Notes under the pieces: model-generated | What the model saw: only the letters and a program-made list of their open reading frames with translations | The model's database searches: none | What the model was told of the DNA's origin: nothing | IMG/VR virus record: IMGVR_UViG_2563366908_000002 | Reading direction: 5' to 3' (one strand) | DNA length: 10,721 bases | From: a virus | Taxonomy: Duplodnaviria > Heunggongvirae > Uroviricota > Caudoviricetes | Made by a program: the position numbers and the translations under genes | Shown: one piece after another, positions 22-10,721 of the stretch | How the letters are laid out: each line of letters begins with the position of its first letter | Position numbering within the stretch: position 1 is the stretch's first letter

Positions 22-1530
22 TTATTCTTCGGACTGGTCGTCGGTGTGCTGCGGCTCCTGTCGTTTCGTTGCGGCACTGCTGCCTCCTTTATCACTGGCC
101 GGATCGGTATCAAATACCAGATCCAGCTTGCGGTTTTCATCAATTTCGGCCTTGCGCCGACGTTTGACATCATCCGGATTACGACCACCTGCACGTACCC
201 AGTCTGATTCTGTCGCCGCTCCACCACGAATCTGAATTTTCCAGGCCTCAGCCTCCTTAACAGGGTCAATCCACGGCATCACCGGTCCGGAATACACCGC
301 GGTATACAGTGAAGAACGATCAAGATCGCGGGGTAGCCTGATAACACCGGATGCCACAGCCTGTTTCAGCCAGGCACGATACATCGGGCGGGTGACGGCA
401 CCAATAAACCAGTCCTGCAGGATCAGGTAGCCATCAGTAGACTCAACCAGTTCCTGACGCTGGGCGCTGTAAGTGCCGTTATAGTTGCGTGCCGTACTGG
501 AAAAACTCAGACGACTGCCCGCCGCCACGGCACGCAACTGACCATTACGAAAAGTTTCAAGATTAGGATTGGGGCGATCCGACTTCACCATTCCAATTTC
601 TTCGCCGGGTTTCAGATCGTCGTAAATAATGCCTGGCTGAATGGTAAGCTCGCGTTCCTTATCCTTGCTGCCATTACCATCCGGTTCATAGCTCTGCCCG
701 TCGCCTTTCCGGATGTACATCCCCAGAGCAGCGGCGATCCTTGCTGCAGTCAGCTCAGAATCTTCATACTCTTTCAGGGCACTGAGGCGGATCAGCACAC
801 CGGACAACAAAGACGTCCCGCGCATCTGGTGCAGACGGCGAACAAATTTAAGATGCAGCATTCGCTCTGCATCCACTTCTTTGGTTTCCATCTGCCGTCC
901 GGATACGGGACGGCTTTTATACACCAGATATTTTTCGGGACGCCCCCAGTCATCAACAAACACGCCCTGATTCAGCCTGTTGCTCTCATCACTGGTCATG
1001 GGAATAAAGTCTGGCTCGAGCGCCTCCAGCCAGAAATGAACATCGGCAGAAGGCGTCAGGCTGTTTATGCGCCCGGAAACCATCTGGGCAAACACCTCAC
1101 CATCGCGCAGCCAGGTACGCAGCATCAGACGTTCCAGCATCGGACGGGTAAACTGCCCGGTGACTTCCGGACTGACAGACCATTCACTCCATCGGGTGCG
1201 TATCTCCGCTGCCAGATCACGGGCAATGGCCCCATTGCGTAATACCGGATGTGGCTCGACAATAATCCCGTTTTTCCCCACCACCCGTTCTTCCAGCTTG
1301 TCAAATACACCAATAACCAGATCGTGGTTGTTATCAAGGTAACGGGCCTGCTCACGTAACGACACGGCCCCGTACTGGCTTAACTGGTCGGCAGTTCGGT
1401 TTTCCCGCCGGGCTTTGTGTGTCCGTGTCGTTTTTACGGCCTCATAAGCCTGGATCACCGCACGGGAACGCAGCCTTGCCGCTTTCCATCCTGGTGAAAA
1501 AACGCCAATCACATCATCAATAATTGCCAT
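22..1530 (-). CDS. phage portal protein (lambda gpB-like by position and size)
   Basis: Track ORF 22..1602 begins at a GTG; the first ATG (1530..1528) overlaps the stop of the upstream W-like gene (TGATG). About 502 aa, last gene in a Nu1-A-W-B order as in lambda. Local motif resemblance to lambda gpB is recalled from memory, not aligned. Confidence 0.8.
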   Translation of the reverse strand: MAIIDDVIGVFSPGWKAARLRSRAVIQAYEAVKTTRTHKARRENRTADQLSQYGAVSLREQARYLDNNHDLVIGVFDKLEERVVGKNGIIVEPHPVLRNGAIARDLAAEIRTRWSEWSVSPEVTGQFTRPMLERLMLRTWLRDGEVFAQMVSGRINSLTPSADVHFWLEALEPDFIPMTSDESNRLNQGVFVDDWGRPEKYLVYKSRPVSGRQMETKEVDAERMLHLKFVRRLHQMRGTSLLSGVLIRLSALKEYEDSELTAARIAAALGMYIRKGDGQSYEPDGNGSKDKERELTIQPGIIYDDLKPGEEIGMVKSDRPNPNLETFRNGQLRAVAAGSRLSFSSTARNYNGTYSAQRQELVESTDGYLILQDWFIGAVTRPMYRAWLKQAVASGVIRLPRDLDRSSLYTAVYSGPVMPWIDPVKEAEAWKIQIRGGAATESDWVRAGGRNPDDVKRRRKAEIDENRKLDLVFDTDPASDKGGSSAATKRQEPQHTDDQSEE

Positions 1531-1742
1531 CAGAACCTCGCCAGCCGGTACCCGGGATGCCCCCGTCGTCGTGTAATCAGAGCCGCAAGGCGGCGCTCCC
1601 ACTCCTGCCGTCCCTGCCGGATCTCAGATAAGTTTTCCATGGTCATCTGCTGACCATTAAAGGTGACGGATTTTCCGTCCAGCACCGCCATTTCAGCTTC
1701 CGTATAACGCTGAATCATGGCTTCAATATCATTCTGATTCAT
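1530..1742 (-). CDS. gpW-like head-tail joining (head completion) protein
   Basis: About 70 aa ORF between large terminase and portal, the position and size of lambda W. GGAGG sits 6 nt upstream of the ATG at 1742 (third codon of track ORF 1530..1748), which overlaps the terminase stop (ATGA). C-terminal RRRG motif resembles lambda W. Confidence 0.7.
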   Translation of the reverse strand: MNQNDIEAMIQRYTEAEMAVLDGKSVTFNGQQMTMENLSEIRQGRQEWERRLAALITRRRGHPGYRLARF

Positions 1743-3841
1743 AACCATCCTCCGGAAGTCAGCCAGGGGTTAACATCGTCAGTTACTGTTTTCTTCCGTT
1801 TTTGTTTTTTAACAGGCGTGGATACCGGTTCCGGTGAGGGTGACGGTTCGGTACTGTCCGGGACACACTCCAGCCAGGTTTCCCGGCTCGCCCACTCCGG
1901 TGCATCCGGCCAGCGGATCTTTTCGTATCCATGCAGAATGACCAGAGCCTCGGCATACACCATCAGGTCAAAGGCTTCGTTGGCACCGCGACCCGGCTTA
2001 CTCCATTTCCCGTCACTGCTCCGCTCTTCATACGTCAGTTCGTCGTAAAACCAGCTCCCCAGCCAGTCAGGGAAATGCACATAGCCTGGACCTGGCGAGT
2101 CACGCCATAACGCGTTATTCACCCGGTCTTTCAGGGCATCCGTCTGAAGAAGCCAGAGCGGCACATCACCTGCGGCCTGCGCCCGTCGGCCCGTTCGTCC
2201 GGTGTTATCAGGGAATGTACGGGTGATCAGTTTTGCGCGCCGGATGCTGTCGCCCTTAAACAGGTAAATACGTTTACCAAGGCCATCACGACGGCAACGA
2301 CGCCAGAATTTATAGGCATTATCAGTGACCCCGTCTTCACCGCCGGAGTCCACCGCCATTGCCATCAGTCGCATTTGTTGAGAAGGATCGGAGGCCAGCG
2401 GCCAGCTTTTATGAAAAACATCCGTCAGCAGGACATCCCAGTCTTCCGGATAGCTGGCCGGATCAATTCGCTGGCTCTCCCCGTCGCTGTCACCGCGCAA
2501 TGACTGCGTGATATTGTAACGATCAATAATCCAGCGTTCGCCACGGCTGCCATAGCCTGTTACCTGAACCACAAAACGGCGATGACGTCCCGCCTGCACA
2601 TCCACTGTCGCCACAAGGAAATTAACGCCATCCGGCACACTGCGGGAAGGAACTGGCTCTGCCCGCTGCTCAAGCAGTTCACTTTTTCGTTGCTCCATGC
2701 TGGCGCGGGGAAGATAAGGTAATCCCCAGTCGGTATTGATAACCGTCTTGAGTGTCTCTTCACTTCCGGTTGTCTCGTATTCCTGTTCTGCAGTAAGCAG
2801 TTTGTAAACGAGTTGCGAGAGTGTCTGATAAGCAGCTGCCGGACCCTCCATCCAGAATGACGCAATACGTGAACGCCGGGGATCACCATAACGACTGCCA
2901 TCTGCATTGATGGATTCACCATCCCGTAACCAGACCCCACGTCCGTTCAGCTCGCGTTTTTGTTCAGGCAAAATCCGTCCTGAACAGGAAGGACACTGAA
3001 TATAAGCCGCCTCACTTGCCAGCACAGGATCGGCAATATCACGGAAACCAGCAACCACATCGCCGCAGGGCTGAAAATACTCACCACAGTGTGGACAGGG
3101 CCAGTACCAGCGACGGCGATCGCCACGGTTATAGAGCGACAGTATACCCGTGGTTGGTGGAGCCTCATGCGGTGAAGTCCGTCGCCATTTCACATCCTTC
3201 ACATCCCTGCCGGGGGAACTCTCCACCAGCGTCATACCACTGGACATAAATGTGGTGGTACGTTTTGAGGCAAGAGAGAAGGCATCCCCCTCACCATCAA
3301 TATCTTCCGGAAAACGGTCATAATCCGTCAGCGCCACGCATTTATAATCTGATGAAGACATGATATTGACTGACGGCCAGCCGATTTTCAGGTAGTTGCC
3401 AGCAAGGAATGTTCTGTCATAAACGTTGTTGTCATTTTTGTTCGGACTCAGGCGACTGACCACTTCCGGGCTGACGCGAAACGTTCTGGCGAGTCGTTTT
3501 TTGGAGTGTTCGCGGGCTTTTTCCTCCGTCATCTGAATGATCAGCATATCAGCAGGATCGCAAATCACGTTGTAAATCACCCAGCCGTCAATCAGGCCGA
3601 TAGTCTTGCCGGTTCGTGCCGGGCCAACAAATATCACTGCGTCGTATTCACGCGAGGCCAGGCAGTTCATAGGCTCAATAACATACGGTGCCACCAGCGG
3701 ATCCCACGGGACTGAGTTCCCTGCCCCCATAGGCACCCGCATATACTGAGCAACGGCATCAGCAACCCGCATTCGTCTCGGTGCGCGAAGGATATAACCT
3801 GAATCGGTTCGTGCTGCCTTTGCGGTTTCCTGATTCAGCAT
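1739..3841 (-). CDS. terminase large subunit (lambda gpA family)
   Basis: 700 aa ORF with Walker-A-like VGPARTGKT, a WPCPHCGEYF motif resembling lambda gpA ACPHCGEE, WIIDR resembling gpA WLIDR, and C-terminal NEAFDLMVYAEAL resembling gpA NEALDCFVYALAAL. ATG at 3841 overlaps the small-terminase stop (TAATG). Confidence 0.9.
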   Translation of the reverse strand: MLNQETAKAARTDSGYILRAPRRMRVADAVAQYMRVPMGAGNSVPWDPLVAPYVIEPMNCLASREYDAVIFVGPARTGKTIGLIDGWVIYNVICDPADMLIIQMTEEKAREHSKKRLARTFRVSPEVVSRLSPNKNDNNVYDRTFLAGNYLKIGWPSVNIMSSSDYKCVALTDYDRFPEDIDGEGDAFSLASKRTTTFMSSGMTLVESSPGRDVKDVKWRRTSPHEAPPTTGILSLYNRGDRRRWYWPCPHCGEYFQPCGDVVAGFRDIADPVLASEAAYIQCPSCSGRILPEQKRELNGRGVWLRDGESINADGSRYGDPRRSRIASFWMEGPAAAYQTLSQLVYKLLTAEQEYETTGSEETLKTVINTDWGLPYLPRASMEQRKSELLEQRAEPVPSRSVPDGVNFLVATVDVQAGRHRRFVVQVTGYGSRGERWIIDRYNITQSLRGDSDGESQRIDPASYPEDWDVLLTDVFHKSWPLASDPSQQMRLMAMAVDSGGEDGVTDNAYKFWRRCRRDGLGKRIYLFKGDSIRRAKLITRTFPDNTGRTGRRAQAAGDVPLWLLQTDALKDRVNNALWRDSPGPGYVHFPDWLGSWFYDELTYEERSSDGKWSKPGRGANEAFDLMVYAEALVILHGYEKIRWPDAPEWASRETWLECVPDSTEPSPSPEPVSTPVKKQKRKKTVTDDVNPWLTSGGWL

Positions 3842-4335
3842 TACTCCTCCTGCTGTAATTCCTCCTCATCATCCGCACCTGCTTCGGTCACCCGCAGGGC
3901 TATCTGATCGCGCAGATCATCAATAATGGACTGAACACGGCTCACAGCGGCAGGCTGCAGACCGCAGTCACGTTCCAGAATATCCGGTAATGTCTCCAGC
4001 ACCTGCACGACCGCTTTTGCCCAGATGGCAAACTCCCGTCTGACATCACTGGCCGGAATGAGTTGCGCCGTTTCCTGTTCGAACTTAAGACGCTCACGTT
4101 CAGACTGATACCAGGCTTTGCGCTCATGCGCGTCCATTTCGCCTTCTGCAACCGGCGGTGGTAATGCCAGAAATGCCGACACAATATCAACCACCCGATA
4201 AAGCTTGAGGTTGCTTTCATGCCCCCCTGCAACGGGTAGATTTTGCAGCCTTGCCGCAGCAGTCTGGCGATGTACACCTGACAGTGCCGCCAGTTGACTG
4301 ATATTCAGCGTCAGATTTTTTAACTCTCGATCCAT
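3841..4335 (-). CDS. terminase small subunit (Nu1-like DNA-packaging protein)
   Basis: 164 aa ORF immediately upstream of and coupled to the large terminase. N-terminal helix-turn-helix-like segment (LTLNISQLAALSGVHRQTAAARL) and acidic C-terminus. GGAG 5 nt upstream of the ATG at 4335. Lies about 175 bp from the putative cosN, as Nu1 does in lambda. Confidence 0.8.
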   Translation of the reverse strand: MDRELKNLTLNISQLAALSGVHRQTAAARLQNLPVAGGHESNLKLYRVVDIVSAFLALPPPVAEGEMDAHERKAWYQSERERLKFEQETAQLIPASDVRREFAIWAKAVVQVLETLPDILERDCGLQPAAVSRVQSIIDDLRDQIALRVTEAGADDEEELQQEE

Positions 4336-4509
4336 ACCCGCTCCAGAATGTTTTAAACATGCATCTTGCGAACAACTTTAGGCAAACGGTGTTAGTGATG
4401 AACAAAAAACAATCAGAATCGACACCATAAAAATAAATCCACTGTAATATCAATCAATTACAGTAGTGGTGATGACGAATAAAATTTCAAAAACTAGCCT
4501 TTTTCCGCG

Positions 4510-4521
4510 ACGCTCCCGCCC
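4510..4521 (-). other. putative cosN cohesive-end site
   Basis: Minus strand reads CCACG-GGGCGGGAGCGT-CGCGGAAAAAGG, against lambda TTACG-GGGCGGCGACCT-CGCGGGTTTTCG recalled from memory. Conserved flanks with a variant 12-mer core, at the expected distance upstream of the Nu1-like start. Confidence 0.5.
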
Positions 4522-4550
4522 CGTGGCAGGGGCCCCCACCGGGAGGACCC

Positions 4551-4573
4551 GACAGCCTGACAGCCTGACAGCC
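4551..4573. repeat. tandem 8-bp repeat GACAGCCT, about 3 copies, beside cosN on the side opposite the Nu1-like gene
   Basis: Direct reading: gacagcct gacagcct gacagcc. Confidence 0.8.
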
Positions 4574-4709
4574 GTGACGAGCATCTGATACAGCGCTTTA
4601 CATAATGGCATAGGAATAATTCAGAAGGACATCACAGCATGCCCACACAAATTAGTGTGAGTGTCCTGTTTCTTCCTACGCACAGGACTGACGAGCATGA
4701 GGGGAAAAT

Positions 4710-4877
4710 ATGCGAACCATAAATGCCTCATCTTCAGCAATGCAGCCGGCATCCGAACAGGACGATATTGTAAATTCACCTAATTACGAGGACATTGCAG
4801 TAGTTGAATTGCAGCTCTGTATTAGCCTGACAGTGACAGAATGCGATATTGACTCTGTCACAGGTGAAATAGTTTGA
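4710..4877 (+). CDS. hypothetical small acidic protein (55 aa), below the ORF-track cutoff
   Basis: Hand translation gives MRTINASSSAMQPASEQDDIVNSPNYEDIAVVELQLCISLTVTECDIDSVTGEIV. GAGGGG sits 5 nt upstream of the ATG. No recognisable family. Confidence 0.3.
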   Translation: MRTINASSSAMQPASEQDDIVNSPNYEDIAVVELQLCISLTVTECDIDSVTGEIV

Positions 4878-4897
4878 ATGATTAGCAGTTATGGTGC

Positions 4898-5104
4898 TCA
4901 GTCAACCACCAGGGAATAATCCTTCGAATTCTTATCGTGCTTCACCAACGCTGCCTCAATTGCCCTGAATGCTTCCAGAGACACCTGATGTTCTATACAT
5001 GCAATTACAACATCCGGGTAACTCATAGAAATGGTGCTATTAAGCATATTTTTTACACGAATCAGATCCAACGAGAGTTCATCAGCAGATTGTTCTTTAT
5101 TCAT
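4898..5104 (-). CDS. hypothetical 68-aa protein (possibly YnfO-like accessory protein of Qin-type prophages)
   Basis: ATG-initiated ORF with GGAG 7 nt upstream. Divergent from the YdfO-like gene and convergent with the 55-aa ORF. Family assignment is from locus memory only. Confidence 0.5.
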
Positions 5105-5404
5105 TTTGTCGCTCCATGCGTTTGCTCGTCATCTAGCGGTTAAAATATTACTTCAAATCTTACTGCATAAAAGAGGAAAAGTATGAAAGTTTGAGTACAT
5201 CGACCTTACATACATCTGTCGGTTGCATATCCCTCCTGGATGCCAGCAAGGCTCAATTTTGTTACGCAATCAACACTATTCATTAAAAACAGGCTTAATA
5301 TTTGACATAAATCATCAACAAAACACAAAGAGGTCAGACCAGATTAAAACAATAAACACGATAATGCAAACTACGCGCCATCGTATCACATGGAAGGTTT
5401 ACCA

Positions 5405-5815
5405 ATGGCTCAGGCTGCCATTTTTAAAGAAATATTCGATCAAGTGCGTAAAGATTTAAACTGTGAATTATTTTATTCTGAGCTAAAACGTCACAATATC
5501 TCACTTTATATTTACTATTTAGCCACAGATAATATTCACATTGTGTTAGAAAACGACAACATAGTGTTAGTAAAAGGACTCAAAAAGGTTGTAAATGTTA
5601 AATTCTCCAGAAACAAACATCTTATAGAGACCTCCTATAATAAGTTGAAATCAAAAGAAATCACATTTCAACAATACAGGGAAAATCTTGCTAAAGCAGG
5701 AGTTTTCCGATGGGTTACAAATATCCAGGAACACCAAAGATATTACTATGCCTTTGATAACTCATTACTATTTACTGAAAGCATCCAGAAAACTACACAG
5801 ATCTTACCACGCTAA
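5405..5815 (+). CDS. ydfO: DUF1398-family protein, YdfO-like
   Basis: Track ORF 5390..5815; preferred start is the ATG at 5405 with GGAAGG 6 nt upstream (136 aa). Matches the size and position of YdfO between nohA and gnsB in K-12 Qin, recalled from memory. Confidence 0.6.
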
Positions 5816-5920
5816 ACCATAACGTCCGGCTTCTCTCACTCCTGAGCCGGACTGCATTGGTTTAATAAAAACCATCAACAATTGTGATTTAGATATTCGG
5901 AACCATTCAAATATAACAAA

Positions 5921-5940
5921 ACCCCGTAAAAACGAGGTTT
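5921..5940 (-). terminator. weak terminator-like hairpin downstream of the GnsB-like gene
   Basis: Minus strand cctcg-ttttta-cgggg (one G-U wobble) followed by TTTTGTT. Confidence 0.3.
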
Positions 5941-5966
5941 ATGGATAAATTTTATTATTGAATACA

Positions 5967-6140
5967 TCAGATTAAATTAATCTTGACATCATAGCTTTCA
6001 AGACCCGTCATTTTTTCCCGTGCGGTAAACTGAATACTGGTAACTTCTTTCCCGGTCTTTTTCTTAAGTTCAATAATTTTTTTTGTTATATATTCAGAAA
6101 TATCTGCTTCTGCTTTTGTTTTTAAGTTTTCAATATTCAT
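5967..6140 (-). CDS. gnsB: GnsA/GnsB-family protein (57 aa), not in the ORF track
   Basis: Hand translation gives MNIENLKTKAEADISEYITKKIIELKKKTGKEVTSIQFTAREKMTGLESYDVKINLI, very close to E. coli GnsA/GnsB as recalled (MNIEELKKQAE...FTAREKMTGLESYDVKIKIM). AGAGGAA precedes the start; an extra in-frame ATG lies 3 nt upstream at 6143. Confidence 0.75.
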   Translation of the reverse strand: MNIENLKTKAEADISEYITKKIIELKKKTGKEVTSIQFTAREKMTGLESYDVKINLI

Positions 6141-6311
6141 CATTTCCTCTTTTAGTCTGTTATGACTTTCCAGTTACACAGTAAGTCGATTATATGGTGC
6201 AAACGTGTAAAAGATAAGATGAAACATCGCAATAATCAACATACGATAGTCTAAATTTTACACAAACAGACAAAGAGAATTTTCCTGAATTATCAATACA
6301 ATAGCATCAAA

Positions 6312-6542
6312 TCAACTCAAGAGCCTTATTGCTGCTTCCAGAATTTCTTCTGAAGTAACATGTCGATCCGCGGCTACATAAATGACTTTATGATCTCCGG
6401 TCAGAGATGGAAACCCTGCGGCCATTACAGTAAGGTGTGTTTTTTCGCCATTTGGATATTCACGCATGATGGTGTTAACTCCAGTCATCGCTGGCACTAC
6501 CACTGCTGGTTCAGAGTTAAAAAAAACTATGATTTTTTTCAT
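6312..6542 (-). CDS. small protein (76 aa), possibly YmcE/YnfN-family cold-shock-associated partner of Gns
   Basis: Track ORF 6312..6584; the 6584 start would overlap a terminator T-tract, so the ATG at 6542 (MKKIIVFFNSEP...) is preferred. Sits directly upstream of the gnsB-like gene, like ymcE-gnsA and ynfN-gnsB in K-12. Family assignment is from memory. Confidence 0.5.
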   Translation of the reverse strand: MKKIIVFFNSEPAVVVPAMTGVNTIMREYPNGEKTHLTVMAAGFPSLTGDHKVIYVAADRHVTSEEILEAAIRLLS

Positions 6543-6590
6543 GATGTTACCGTAGTATGTGAGTATCCATCGAATAGATACCAAGCAAAA

Positions 6591-6609
6591 AAGCTCCCGA
6601 AGGAGCCTT
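6591..6609 (-). terminator. Rho-independent terminator-like hairpin, possibly bidirectional
   Basis: gctcc-cgaa-ggagc stem-loop; on the minus strand it is followed immediately by TTTTTTGC. About 200 nt downstream of the cspI stop. Confidence 0.5.
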
Positions 6610-6813
6610 CATTTTCACTTTTTTAAATCCAACGACAGACGGCTGGCATTTAAGTATTGTGAAATATTATCAAATGTAATCATCATTGATTTACAAAAGA
6701 TACATTTTGCCCCGAAAGGATTCATGTCAGAAACATCAAAAGATGATGTTCTATACTGGGAACCATGACAACACGGGCATCTAAAGTGAATATGGTTTGT
6801 AATATTGTCTACC

Positions 6814-7026
6814 TCAAAGCGCCACTACATGAACAGCGGCAGGACCTTTAGGTCCGTTCTCAATACCAAATTCAACTTCCTGATTCTCAGTTAATGTTTT
6901 GAAATCGTTGCTCTGAATTGCTGAGAAATGGACAAACACATCTTTGCTGCCATCTTTCGGCGTGATGAAACCAAAACCTTTTTCAGGGTTAAACCATTTC
7001 ACTAAACCAGTCATTTTGTTAGACAT
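6814..7026 (-). CDS. cspI: cold-shock protein CspI (CspA family)
   Basis: 70 aa beginning [38 protein letters not shown] with RNP1/RNP2 motifs; matches E. coli CspI as recalled. AAGG ribosome-binding site upstream of the ATG. Confidence 0.93.
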
Positions 7027-7176
7027 AATTATTACCTTTTGAAGAAATTAGCCCTTGGGCAGAATGGTCCGAAAAAAAATATCAGAGAGAAAAACCAACA
7101 AGGAAATCTCAAGAGGTACAAATAATAAAATTATAACAATGACTGCTTCAGATAAATTTGTAACAAACCAGAACAC

Positions 7177-7206
7177 CATTAACGCATGATTAACCACCCA
7201 TAGCAA
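7177..7206 (-). promoter_or_regulatory. putative cspI promoter with cspA-like architecture
   Basis: Minus strand TTGCTA, 17-18 bp spacer, then GTTAAT/TTAATG, with an AT-rich tract upstream. Resembles the cspA promoter (TTGCAT ... CTTAAT) as recalled. Implies a 5' UTR of about 145 nt, consistent with the long leaders of csp genes. Confidence 0.45.
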
Positions 7207-7389: not shown

Positions 7390-8413
<1,024 letters not shown>

Positions 8414-9960: not shown

Positions 9961-10070
9961 TGGGACCCCCTTTTGATTTCTTGTTTGACACTTGCAGTTG
10001 CCAGACCGCAAGGTGTTTTAACAAATCAAAAGGGGTTTTAATAACTGGCTCAAAGCTGAAAGCTTTCCGG

Positions 10071-10093
10071 AACCCCCAGCCTAGCTGGGGGTT
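10071..10093. repeat. perfect palindrome in the IS200 left end
   Basis: aacccccagc-cta-gctgggggtt, a 10-bp perfect stem. Candidate subterminal hairpin of the kind IS200/IS605 transposases recognise on single-stranded DNA. Confidence 0.6.
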
Positions 10094-10130: not shown

Positions 10131-10410
10131 AGATTGTGGTGCTTTTTGTGGGAGTCATCCACTTACGCACTTTGTTTTGCCATGCCAGCAGTTAGCTTCT
10201 GCTGTAAAACTATTCATGCAGCAAACCTGCACTTCACCACAATGGTTAGCATACTTTTCCTGATTAAGATTTTGCCAAATATGCTAGCCATTGTTTCATG
10301 TATTGGACCTCCTTACTTTTTATTAAAGAGATCCAATATTCACTACTCTGTCCGTATCTCTACTCAGGCATCAGCCTTCTTCGTTATCGTATACAGACGA
10401 GCGATGAATT

Positions 10411-10626
10411 TTAATCAGTAATGATGACATTTGCTGCTGCAGGACCTTTAGCACCACTCTCTATAGAGAAGGTAACCTTTTGACCTTCAAATAAGGTTCG
10501 ATAATTATCATTCTGAATCGCAGAAAAATGCACAAACACATCTTTACTACCATCAACAGGAGAAATAAAGCCGAAACCTTTATCAGCGTTAAACCATTTT
10601 ACTAAACCAGTCATTTTATTTGACAT
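10411..10626 (-). CDS. cspB: cold-shock protein CspB (CspA family)
   Basis: 71 aa: [71 protein letters not shown]; matches E. coli CspB as recalled. The 5' leader runs off the window end. Confidence 0.93.
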
Positions 10627-10721
10627 TCGGTGATGCTGCCAACTTACTGATTTAGTGTATGATGGTGTTTTTGAGGTGCTCCAGTGGCTTCTGTTTCTAT
10701 CAGCTGTCCCTCCTGTTCAGC

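Follow-up and report, generated by a model that had tools for sequence, protein, structure and literature searches.

A putative lambda-type cos site upstream of a DUF1441 small terminase gene in a lambdoid Escherichia coli prophage

Terminase genes and their neighbourhood

The window analyzed in this work (the whole 10,721-nt stretch of IMG/VR virus record IMGVR_UViG_2563366908_000002) carries on its minus strand a gene for a small terminase subunit (TerS) of 164 aa belonging to the DUF1441 family (3841..4335; Pfam E = 2.7e-41, PHROG 141 E = 7e-74), followed on the same strand by genes for a 700 aa large terminase subunit (TerL) of the gpA family (1739..3841; GpA_ATPase 1.6e-71, GpA_nuclease 1.1e-85), a W-like head-tail adaptor identified by profile match (1530..1748) and a lambda-family portal protein identified by Pfam (22..1602). 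All four were full-length open reading frames with full-length domain matches. Upstream of the predicted cos site, which lies ahead of terS, were ybcW-like, DUF1398, gnsB, ynfN and cspI genes together with lysis genes. Over 9.4 kb the window shared 99.7% identity with a prophage of E. coli 118UI, in which the head genes continue intact, the next one being a ClpP-protease/capsid fusion. The prophage is very probably a lambdoid E. coli type with a head module of the Gifsy-2/mEp213 type.

An earlier note on this DNA had described the small terminase as Nu1-like. This description holds for the position and function of the gene but not for its family, as TerS is a DUF1441 protein (PF07278) which had no match to Phage_Nu1 (PF07471) at E <= 10, and a blastp comparison with Nu1 homologues gave E ~1, which is not significant. 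A PDB sequence search with TerS for a Nu1-like winged HTH returned nothing relevant. Residues 3-33 of TerS gave weak, sub-threshold HTH Pfam matches only, and the case for a DNA-binding domain in this protein therefore comes from the co-variation described below and not from its fold. The window TerL was approximately 25% identical to lambda gpA and 88% identical to the TerL proteins of phages cdtI and Tritos, and as a gpA-family protein it is the enzyme expected to nick cosN.

Rfam matches above gathering score were obtained at 6787..7172, 10383..10721 and 9970..10093 (minus strand) and consisted of two cspA thermoregulator 5'-UTRs (those of the prophage cspI and cspB) and the Hfq-binding sRNA STnc490. 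Three Chi octamers (GCTGGTGG) were observed, with their 5' bases at minus-strand positions 7999, 3698 and 3230. All lie on the top strand of the phage, and none was present on the other strand of the window. Chi in this orientation is active for RecBCD that enters at the right end, and the bias agrees with that reported for Tritos-type lambdoid phages (PMC12315714).

Sequence and subsites of the predicted cos site

Positions 4524..4505 of the minus strand read ACG|GGGCGGGAGCGT|CGCGG, with the 12-base core at 4510..4521. Base by base this is A(4524)C G | G(4521)GGCGGGAGCG T(4510) | C(4509)GCGG(4505), and the wider minus-strand context of the core is ...GGGTCCTCCCGGTGGGGGCCCCTGCCACG|GGGCGGGAGCGT|CGCGGAAAAAGG... 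These are the letters and core coordinates on which the earlier note had based its proposal of a cos site, and its spacing of about 175 bp to the small terminase start was also correct, the terS ATG lying 175 nt past the last core base, or at +187 counted from the predicted left end. In lambda the gene starts at 191 and in phi80 at 190, and in most of the IMG/VR relatives that were scored the start is at +185..+187.

The packaging-termination signal cosQ, GGGTCCT, was found at 4544..4550 (minus strand) as a 7/7 match which was invariant in all relatives. Homology among the loci starts exactly at cosQ, sequences further upstream being unrelated, and cosQ is highly conserved among lambda-like phages generally (PMC4669245). 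In the window 20 nt separate cosQ from the CG preceding the left nick, whereas the spacer of lambda, phi80 and Gifsy-1 is 21 nt long. Immediately upstream of cosQ the octamer GGCTGTCA is present three times in tandem (4551..4573, minus strand). Relatives carried two or three copies, and as the octamers were absent from relatives with other right ends they are probably outside cos.

The cosN subsite, defined as 16 bp (PMC9026076), corresponds to CG|GGGCGGGAGCGT|CG at 4508..4523 (minus strand), that is, the core and both nick-flanking CG dinucleotides. Exactly 12 bp lie between the two CG pairs (4523-4522 and 4509-4508), which is the lambda spacing. Over 22 bp, dyad symmetry held at 6/11 positions in the window and at 5/11 in lambda, the partial symmetry of the window core being centred between bp 6 and 7. 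Nicks are predicted at 4522/4521 (minus strand) and 4509/4510 (plus strand), matching the ends of the cdtI and Tritos records. By analogy with lambda, and from the gpA-family TerL, cleavage would leave a 12-nt 5' cohesive end at 4510..4521, with 5'-GGGCGGGAGCGT on the left end and 5'-ACGCTCCCGCCC (plus strand) on the right. As the TerL proteins are only about 25% identical and TerS belongs to another family, the transfer of this geometry from lambda rests on conservation of the site.

The segment from +13 to +34, CGCGGAAAAAGGCTAGTTTTTG (4488..4509, minus strand), occupies the position of lambda I2, which is needed for termination (PMC4669245), and forms the end of the constant cosQ-cosN block. 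It was identical or nearly so across all of the cosB types described below, with divergence starting from +35.

The remaining sequence up to terS (4336..4487, minus strand) is the presumed TerS recognition region, a cosB equivalent which we designate type C and which varies in step with the TerS N-terminus. A repeat search, which recovered R3, R2 and R1 when applied to lambda as a control, identified a direct repeat TT(C/G)(G/T)TCATCAC at +43 and +117. The first copy lies within TTTTATTCGTCATCAC (+38..+53; 4469..4484, minus strand), a candidate R3-like TerS site that coincides in position with the R3 sites of lambda (bp 50-65) and N15 (bp 48-60) (PMC9026076), and the second within TTTTGTTCATCAC (+115..+127; 4395..4407, minus strand), a candidate R1/R2 equivalent. 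An inverted R2 was sought in the window cosB by the same search and was not found, so that a lambda-like R3-I1-R2-R1 layout is not established. Between the two candidate sites is a predicted IHF site, TATCAATCAATTA, which is an exact match to the consensus (+62..+74; 4448..4460, plus strand) and is flanked by a perfect 8-bp inverted repeat, ACTGTAAT/ATTACAGT (4441-4448 and 4457-4464). The consensus WATCAANNNNTTR was matched once in the window, where 0.77 matches would be expected per 10.7 kb and approximately 0.01 in this 150-bp region. The type A cosB of other phages also contained an exact IHF consensus, at +64.

The pattern of cosQ, 20 nt and CGGGGCGG matched once with no mismatches, for an expectation of 0.01 even with two mismatches allowed, and the composition-based expectation for cosQ + CG + GGGCGG + T + CGCGG with five spacings allowed was 8e-9 per window. 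The alignment to lambda that had been proposed at the outset was less informative: in a Smith-Waterman comparison with an 80-nt lambda cos probe the best place in the window was indeed this site, but the score of 24 fell within the null (22.1 +/- 2.0, maximum 30) and on its own is weak. For this reason a four-phage profile was used instead. With an nhmmer profile built from the cos regions of lambda, phi80, N15 and Gifsy-1 only, the sole significant match in the window was 4551..4480 (minus strand; E = 8.5e-5).

The non-significant score against lambda alone would fit a chance likeness to lambda cosN in GC-rich intergenic DNA, but the profile match and the composite motif expectation argue against this. 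The region might otherwise be read as coding, since an ATG open reading frame at 4450..4611 overlaps the cos site and a similar one is annotated in PhiR40_1, but the limits of the conserved block at cosQ and +34 cut across this frame, which had no Pfam or PHROG match. The only sign of a terminator was a weak terminator-like hairpin at 4466..4439, which has just three GC pairs and encloses the IHF consensus, and a structured RNA is opposed by a fold z-score of 0.13 and an Rfam search that gave no match at cos. The cos site showed neither a competing RNA family or fold nor a convincing terminator, and these readings are effectively refuted.

The open reading frame at 4450..4611 (minus strand, 53 aa) spans cosQ, cosN and cosB, and in PhiR40_1 a hypothetical-protein ORF is annotated across the cos region (493-798 of our extracted locus L131). 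With no family match, and cut as it is by the mosaic boundaries, the cos-spanning frame is almost certainly a spurious gene call.

Deposited genome ends, module co-variation and prevalence

Two deposited phage genomes, cdtI (AB285204, deposited 2007) and Tritos (OV696610), open with GGGCGGGAGCGT and close with ...CCTGCCACG. The Tritos record begins GGGCGGGAGCGTCGCGGAAAAAGGCTAGTTTTTG and ends ...GGGTCCTCCCGGTGGGGGCCCCTGCCACG, and the cdtI record does likewise, so that both start at the equivalent of 4521 and end at the equivalent of 4522. The cosQ and 12-nt core sequences were identical in cdtI, Tritos and the window, and over the +13..+34 segment Tritos was identical to the window while cdtI differed at one base. 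By sequence, then, the site is already known, as the ends of deposited phage genomes match it base for base, and these records together with the profile match agree with the placement of the cos site and its nicks in the earlier note. That note had also assigned the accessory genes to the right end of the packaged genome, and the right end of Tritos carries the same set (ybcW, DUF1398, gnsB, ynfN and csp) as found at 4600..7200 of the window. Both phages differ from the window in having a cosB that is unrelated from +35 onwards (type A as opposed to type C) and a TerS only 42% identical; their packaging-initiation specificity is probably different. Tritos is prophage 3 of E. coli LF82 and yields virions and plaques; the paper describing it gives no basis for its genome ends (PMC9928086).

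We regard 4336..4550 of the minus strand as the cos site of a lambdoid E. coli prophage, and put the probability of this reading at roughly 0.88.

Type C cosB and TerS were also present in the phage isolates mEp460_4F5, phi458 and vB_EcoS-569R4, and the virion-derived assembly of mEp460_4F5 was opened 5 nt from the predicted nick. Positions 1-25 of mEp460_4F5 (locus L005, LR595868) read CCACGGGGCGGGAGCGCGG, which is 3 nt short within the cohesive end compared to the window and all other type C relatives; the shortfall probably arose in assembly, at the physical end of the genome. The authors of the Ayreon genome were unable to place its cos (PMC5764929). Literature searches with GGGCGGGAGCGT or its complement returned no relevant paper and one unrelated match in vascular biology. 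We found no verifiable experimental end-mapping for this terminase clade in the literature covered, which did not take in Vahanian et al. 2017 (Virology 509:140), reportedly a survey of cosN, or Asakura et al. 2007, which is said to be the cdtI paper. Searches with the Gifsy-1, mEp213 and VT1 cores returned only PMC12315714.

At least 120 IMG/VR contigs contained the exact 20-mer, and in these the sequence from cosQ to +34 was constant while both the sequence upstream of cosQ and that downstream of +34 were mosaic. Downstream of +34 there were at least four types of cosB, which changed in step with the N-terminal ~55 aa of TerS. Type A (cdtI, Tritos) was accompanied by a TerS 42% identical to that of the window and a TerL 87-88% identical, type B (locus L013) by a TerS 86% identical and a TerL ~99.5% identical, and type C, the type of the window, by TerS identities of 99-100% and TerL identities of 91-100% (median 99.6%). 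The fourth type (locus L036) had a TerS N-terminus unlike those of types B and C. This last locus, with an open reading frame at +110, had been considered as a possible phage-inducible chromosomal island (PICI), a reading that was rejected since the frame is terS itself, with a GTG in frame further upstream.

The comparison of types B and C is the most direct, as all of the differences between the type B TerS and that of the window were located in the N-terminal ~55 aa, the C-terminal half being essentially the same. TerL and the TerS C-terminus thus match between these types where cosB and the TerS N-terminus differ, indicating that cosB travels with the TerS N-terminus. Across the loci sampled, the constant block from cosQ through cosN to +34 travels with TerL, and the co-variation of cosB with the TerS N-terminus supports a recognition role for cosB.

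A 285-bp region containing the site was matched in 2,113 of 5,426 complete E. coli genomes, at up to seven places per genome, and with at least 99% identity in 232 genomes. No annotated feature lay under the region among the matches listed, and PGAP annotates nothing there. Many lambdoid prophages of E. coli are defective. The site could accordingly be a true cos by descent which is no longer used, a relic in a defective prophage that might be usable only by a helper with a matching terminase. The window shows only 10.7 kb, many of the copies in the 2,113 genomes must be remnants, and in one IMG/VR locus (L010) the same cos lies beside a truncated terL. Against this, terS, terL and the adaptor and portal genes are full length in the window, the 118UI prophage that matches it so closely has intact head genes, and none of the cos subsites is damaged, all being the same as in the plaque-forming Tritos. 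We consider a relic unlikely.

The L010 locus (IMGVR_UViG_2574179916_000005, 1-11983) contained a type C cos, terS and a terL truncated after the ATPase domain, followed by an integrase-bearing island of approximately 9 kb with Bro-N, an AAA_25 replication protein and SSB. Two more copies of cosQ-cosN were present in the island, one before a ClpP/capsid fusion gene and the other, with the core GGGCGGGAGCGG, before a DUF1441 TerS homologue. From its gene content the island looks like a satellite or PICI-like element which has inserted in the terminase gene of the prophage and carries the same cosN. Two or three copies of cosQ-cosN were also observed in L066, L125 and L137.

A further alternative is that the cos is real but the terminase of this clade cuts it otherwise, leaving a 10- or 11-nt overhang or placing the nicks 1-2 bp away. 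The distance of TerL from gpA (~25% identity), the different family of TerS and the cosQ spacing of 20 instead of 21 would all be compatible with this, as would the relatives in which 10-11 nt separate CG|GGGCGG from CGCGG and the cosQ spacer is 22 nt, since the interval is then not fixed; with right halves 1-2 nt shorter in such relatives, the sequence alone does not guarantee the position of the right nick. However, the nick-flanking CG dinucleotides of the window have the lambda spacing of exactly 12 bp, the partial dyad has its centre between bp 6 and 7, and two depositors set their genome ends at exactly these positions. In the CP-1639-type variant, too, a stagger of 12 nt counted from the left nick ends before a CG. 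We judge a different stagger in the window to be very unlikely and retain the 12-nt cut described above.

The relatives with the shorter interval are of the Stx-phage type. VT1-Sakai (L129, AP000400; 401-480) and CP-1639 (L130, AJ304858; 401-480) have kept cosQ, CG|GGGCGG and CGCGGAAAAAGG, with 10-11 nt (GGGCGGGCGG(G), GGGCGGAGGGG) in place of the 12 nt of the window, and the same pattern was observed in the IMG/VR loci L134, L135, L140 and L146. As the cosQ spacer in these is 22 nt compared to 20 nt, cosQ and the right flank remain 34-35 bp apart. Their sequence implies that the nicks are shifted, that the overhangs are shorter, or that a 12-nt stagger is cut without regard to the right flank. 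There is accordingly a slight chance that the cohesive-end length or right-nick position is not fixed at 12 nt in this clade. If this were so, cos sites of a single terminase family might give overhangs of different length, or the nicks might be measured from cosQ or the +13..+34 segment instead of being read from cosN, and the window cos would be the 12-nt member of a length-variable series.

Subsite identity, geometry, module co-variation and the coincidence with the deposited ends of two phages were observed; we infer the nick positions, the polarity and length of the overhangs, the binding of TerS and IHF, and any activity of this particular prophage, and propose the following. During late growth the DUF1441 TerS, bound to cosB (~4336..4487), would position the gpA-family TerL, the DNA probably being bent by IHF at 4448..4460. 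TerL would then nick cosN twice, 12 bp apart, after the CG on the top strand (4522/4521) and on the bottom strand (4509/4510), giving virion DNA with 5' overhangs of GGGCGGGAGCGT on the left and ACGCTCCCGCCC on the right. Packaging would run from 4521 to lower coordinates through terS, terL, the portal gene and onward, and terminate at the next cos by means of cosQ (4544..4550), cosN and the +13..+34 segment. This direction would place the cold-shock, gnsB, ynfN, DUF1398 and ybcW genes (~4600..7200) at the right end of the packaged chromosome.

If correct, the cos assignment establishes where the virion DNA ends, and in what order the genes lie, in a very common and so far unannotated type of E. 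coli prophage, would allow the genomes of Ayreon and similar phages to be opened correctly, and marks the cold-shock/gnsB/ynfN/DUF1398 morons as right-end cargo. The comparison of loci also provides a natural example of modular packaging specificity in the style of lambda, here in a clade of terminases very distant from that of lambda. Established principles are confirmed and none is new, and the practical value is modest.

Comparison with lambda, Gifsy-1 and other cos sites

The cos of lambda reads ...GGGTCCTTTCCGGTGATCCGACAGGTTACG|GGGCGGCGACCT|CGCGGG..., with nu1 starting at 191. Lambda and the window are alike in cosQ (7/7), cosN bp 1-6, 10 and 12, both CG dinucleotides and the CGCGG flank, as well as in the distance of the small terminase gene from the left end (~190 bp), a gpA-family TerL, the order of the subsites and the direction of packaging. 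As the earlier note had recognized, the flanks are those of lambda and the core differs at several positions: GGGCGG|GAGCGT in the window and GGGCGG|CGACCT in lambda differ at bp 7, 8, 9 and 11 only. The two systems differ further in the family of TerS (Nu1 in lambda, DUF1441 in the window), in TerL (~25% identity) and in the cosQ spacer (21 nt vs 20 nt), and instead of recognisable lambda R sequences the window cosB has one direct repeat and an exact IHF consensus.

The features shared by the window with lambda, phi80, N15 and Gifsy-1 were cosQ (7/7), both CG dinucleotides and bp 1-6 of cosN. Work of the Feiss laboratory describes cosQ, the CG flanks and the left half of cosN as the conserved elements of lambda-like phages, while natural variation in cosN is common in bp 7-12, to which it is confined, N15 differing at 9 and 12 and Gifsy-1 at 8, 9 and 11 (PMC4669245). 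By its sequence the window core is an ordinary example of this published pattern and not an unusual variant. The same study reported that changes in the right half of cosN had no measurable effect on cleavage, lambda and N15 terminases being indifferent to them, and that a 2/12 mismatch of the cohesive ends lowered yield only about 4-fold (PMC4669245). The earlier statement that the ends would not be lambda-compatible is a reasonable inference for annealing, given mismatches at 4 of 12 positions, but it need not extend to cutting, since the lambda and N15 enzymes tolerate right-half changes.

The closest core among these phages is that of Gifsy-1 (NC_010392), whose cos is listed as lambda-like by Feiss et al. 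(PMC4669245) and reads GGGTCCT-21nt-CG|GGGCGGCAGCGT|CGCAGG. Its cosQ and flanking CG are as in the window, and the window core is the Gifsy-1 core with C changed to G at bp 7. Gifsy-1 differs in having a true Nu1-family TerS, a lambda-like TerL of 643 aa that is ~25% identical to that of the window, the right flank CGCAGG, a cosQ spacer of 21 nt and another cosB.

Putative cos ends have been described for mEp213/LLS (PMC12315714), where they were inferred. These (GGGCGGCGCGCT) contain a lambda-like 12-nt core which also varies in bp 7-12, with a right half of CGCGCT compared to GAGCGT in the window. The mEp213/LLS TerL is only distantly lambda-like (E = 4e-18), and the head genes include a Gifsy-2-like fused protease-capsid (PMC12315714). 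The likeness to the window is taken from this published description.

PICIs of the EcCICFT073 type have cosQ and cosN near-identical to those of their helper phages with other sequence replacing cosB, followed by rpp at approximately +102 and no terminase (PMC9026076). In the window it is terS, terL and the portal gene that come next, indicating that this is a phage cos and not a PICI cos. From its subsites it would work like the cos of lambda but belong to another initiation-specificity group than lambda or 21, since its TerS is a DUF1441 protein and not Nu1 and no lambda R-like sequence is present. The logic of the modules, with a constant cosQ-cosN block and a cosB that changes together with the TerS N-terminus, mirrors by analogy the packaging specificity of lambda versus 21.
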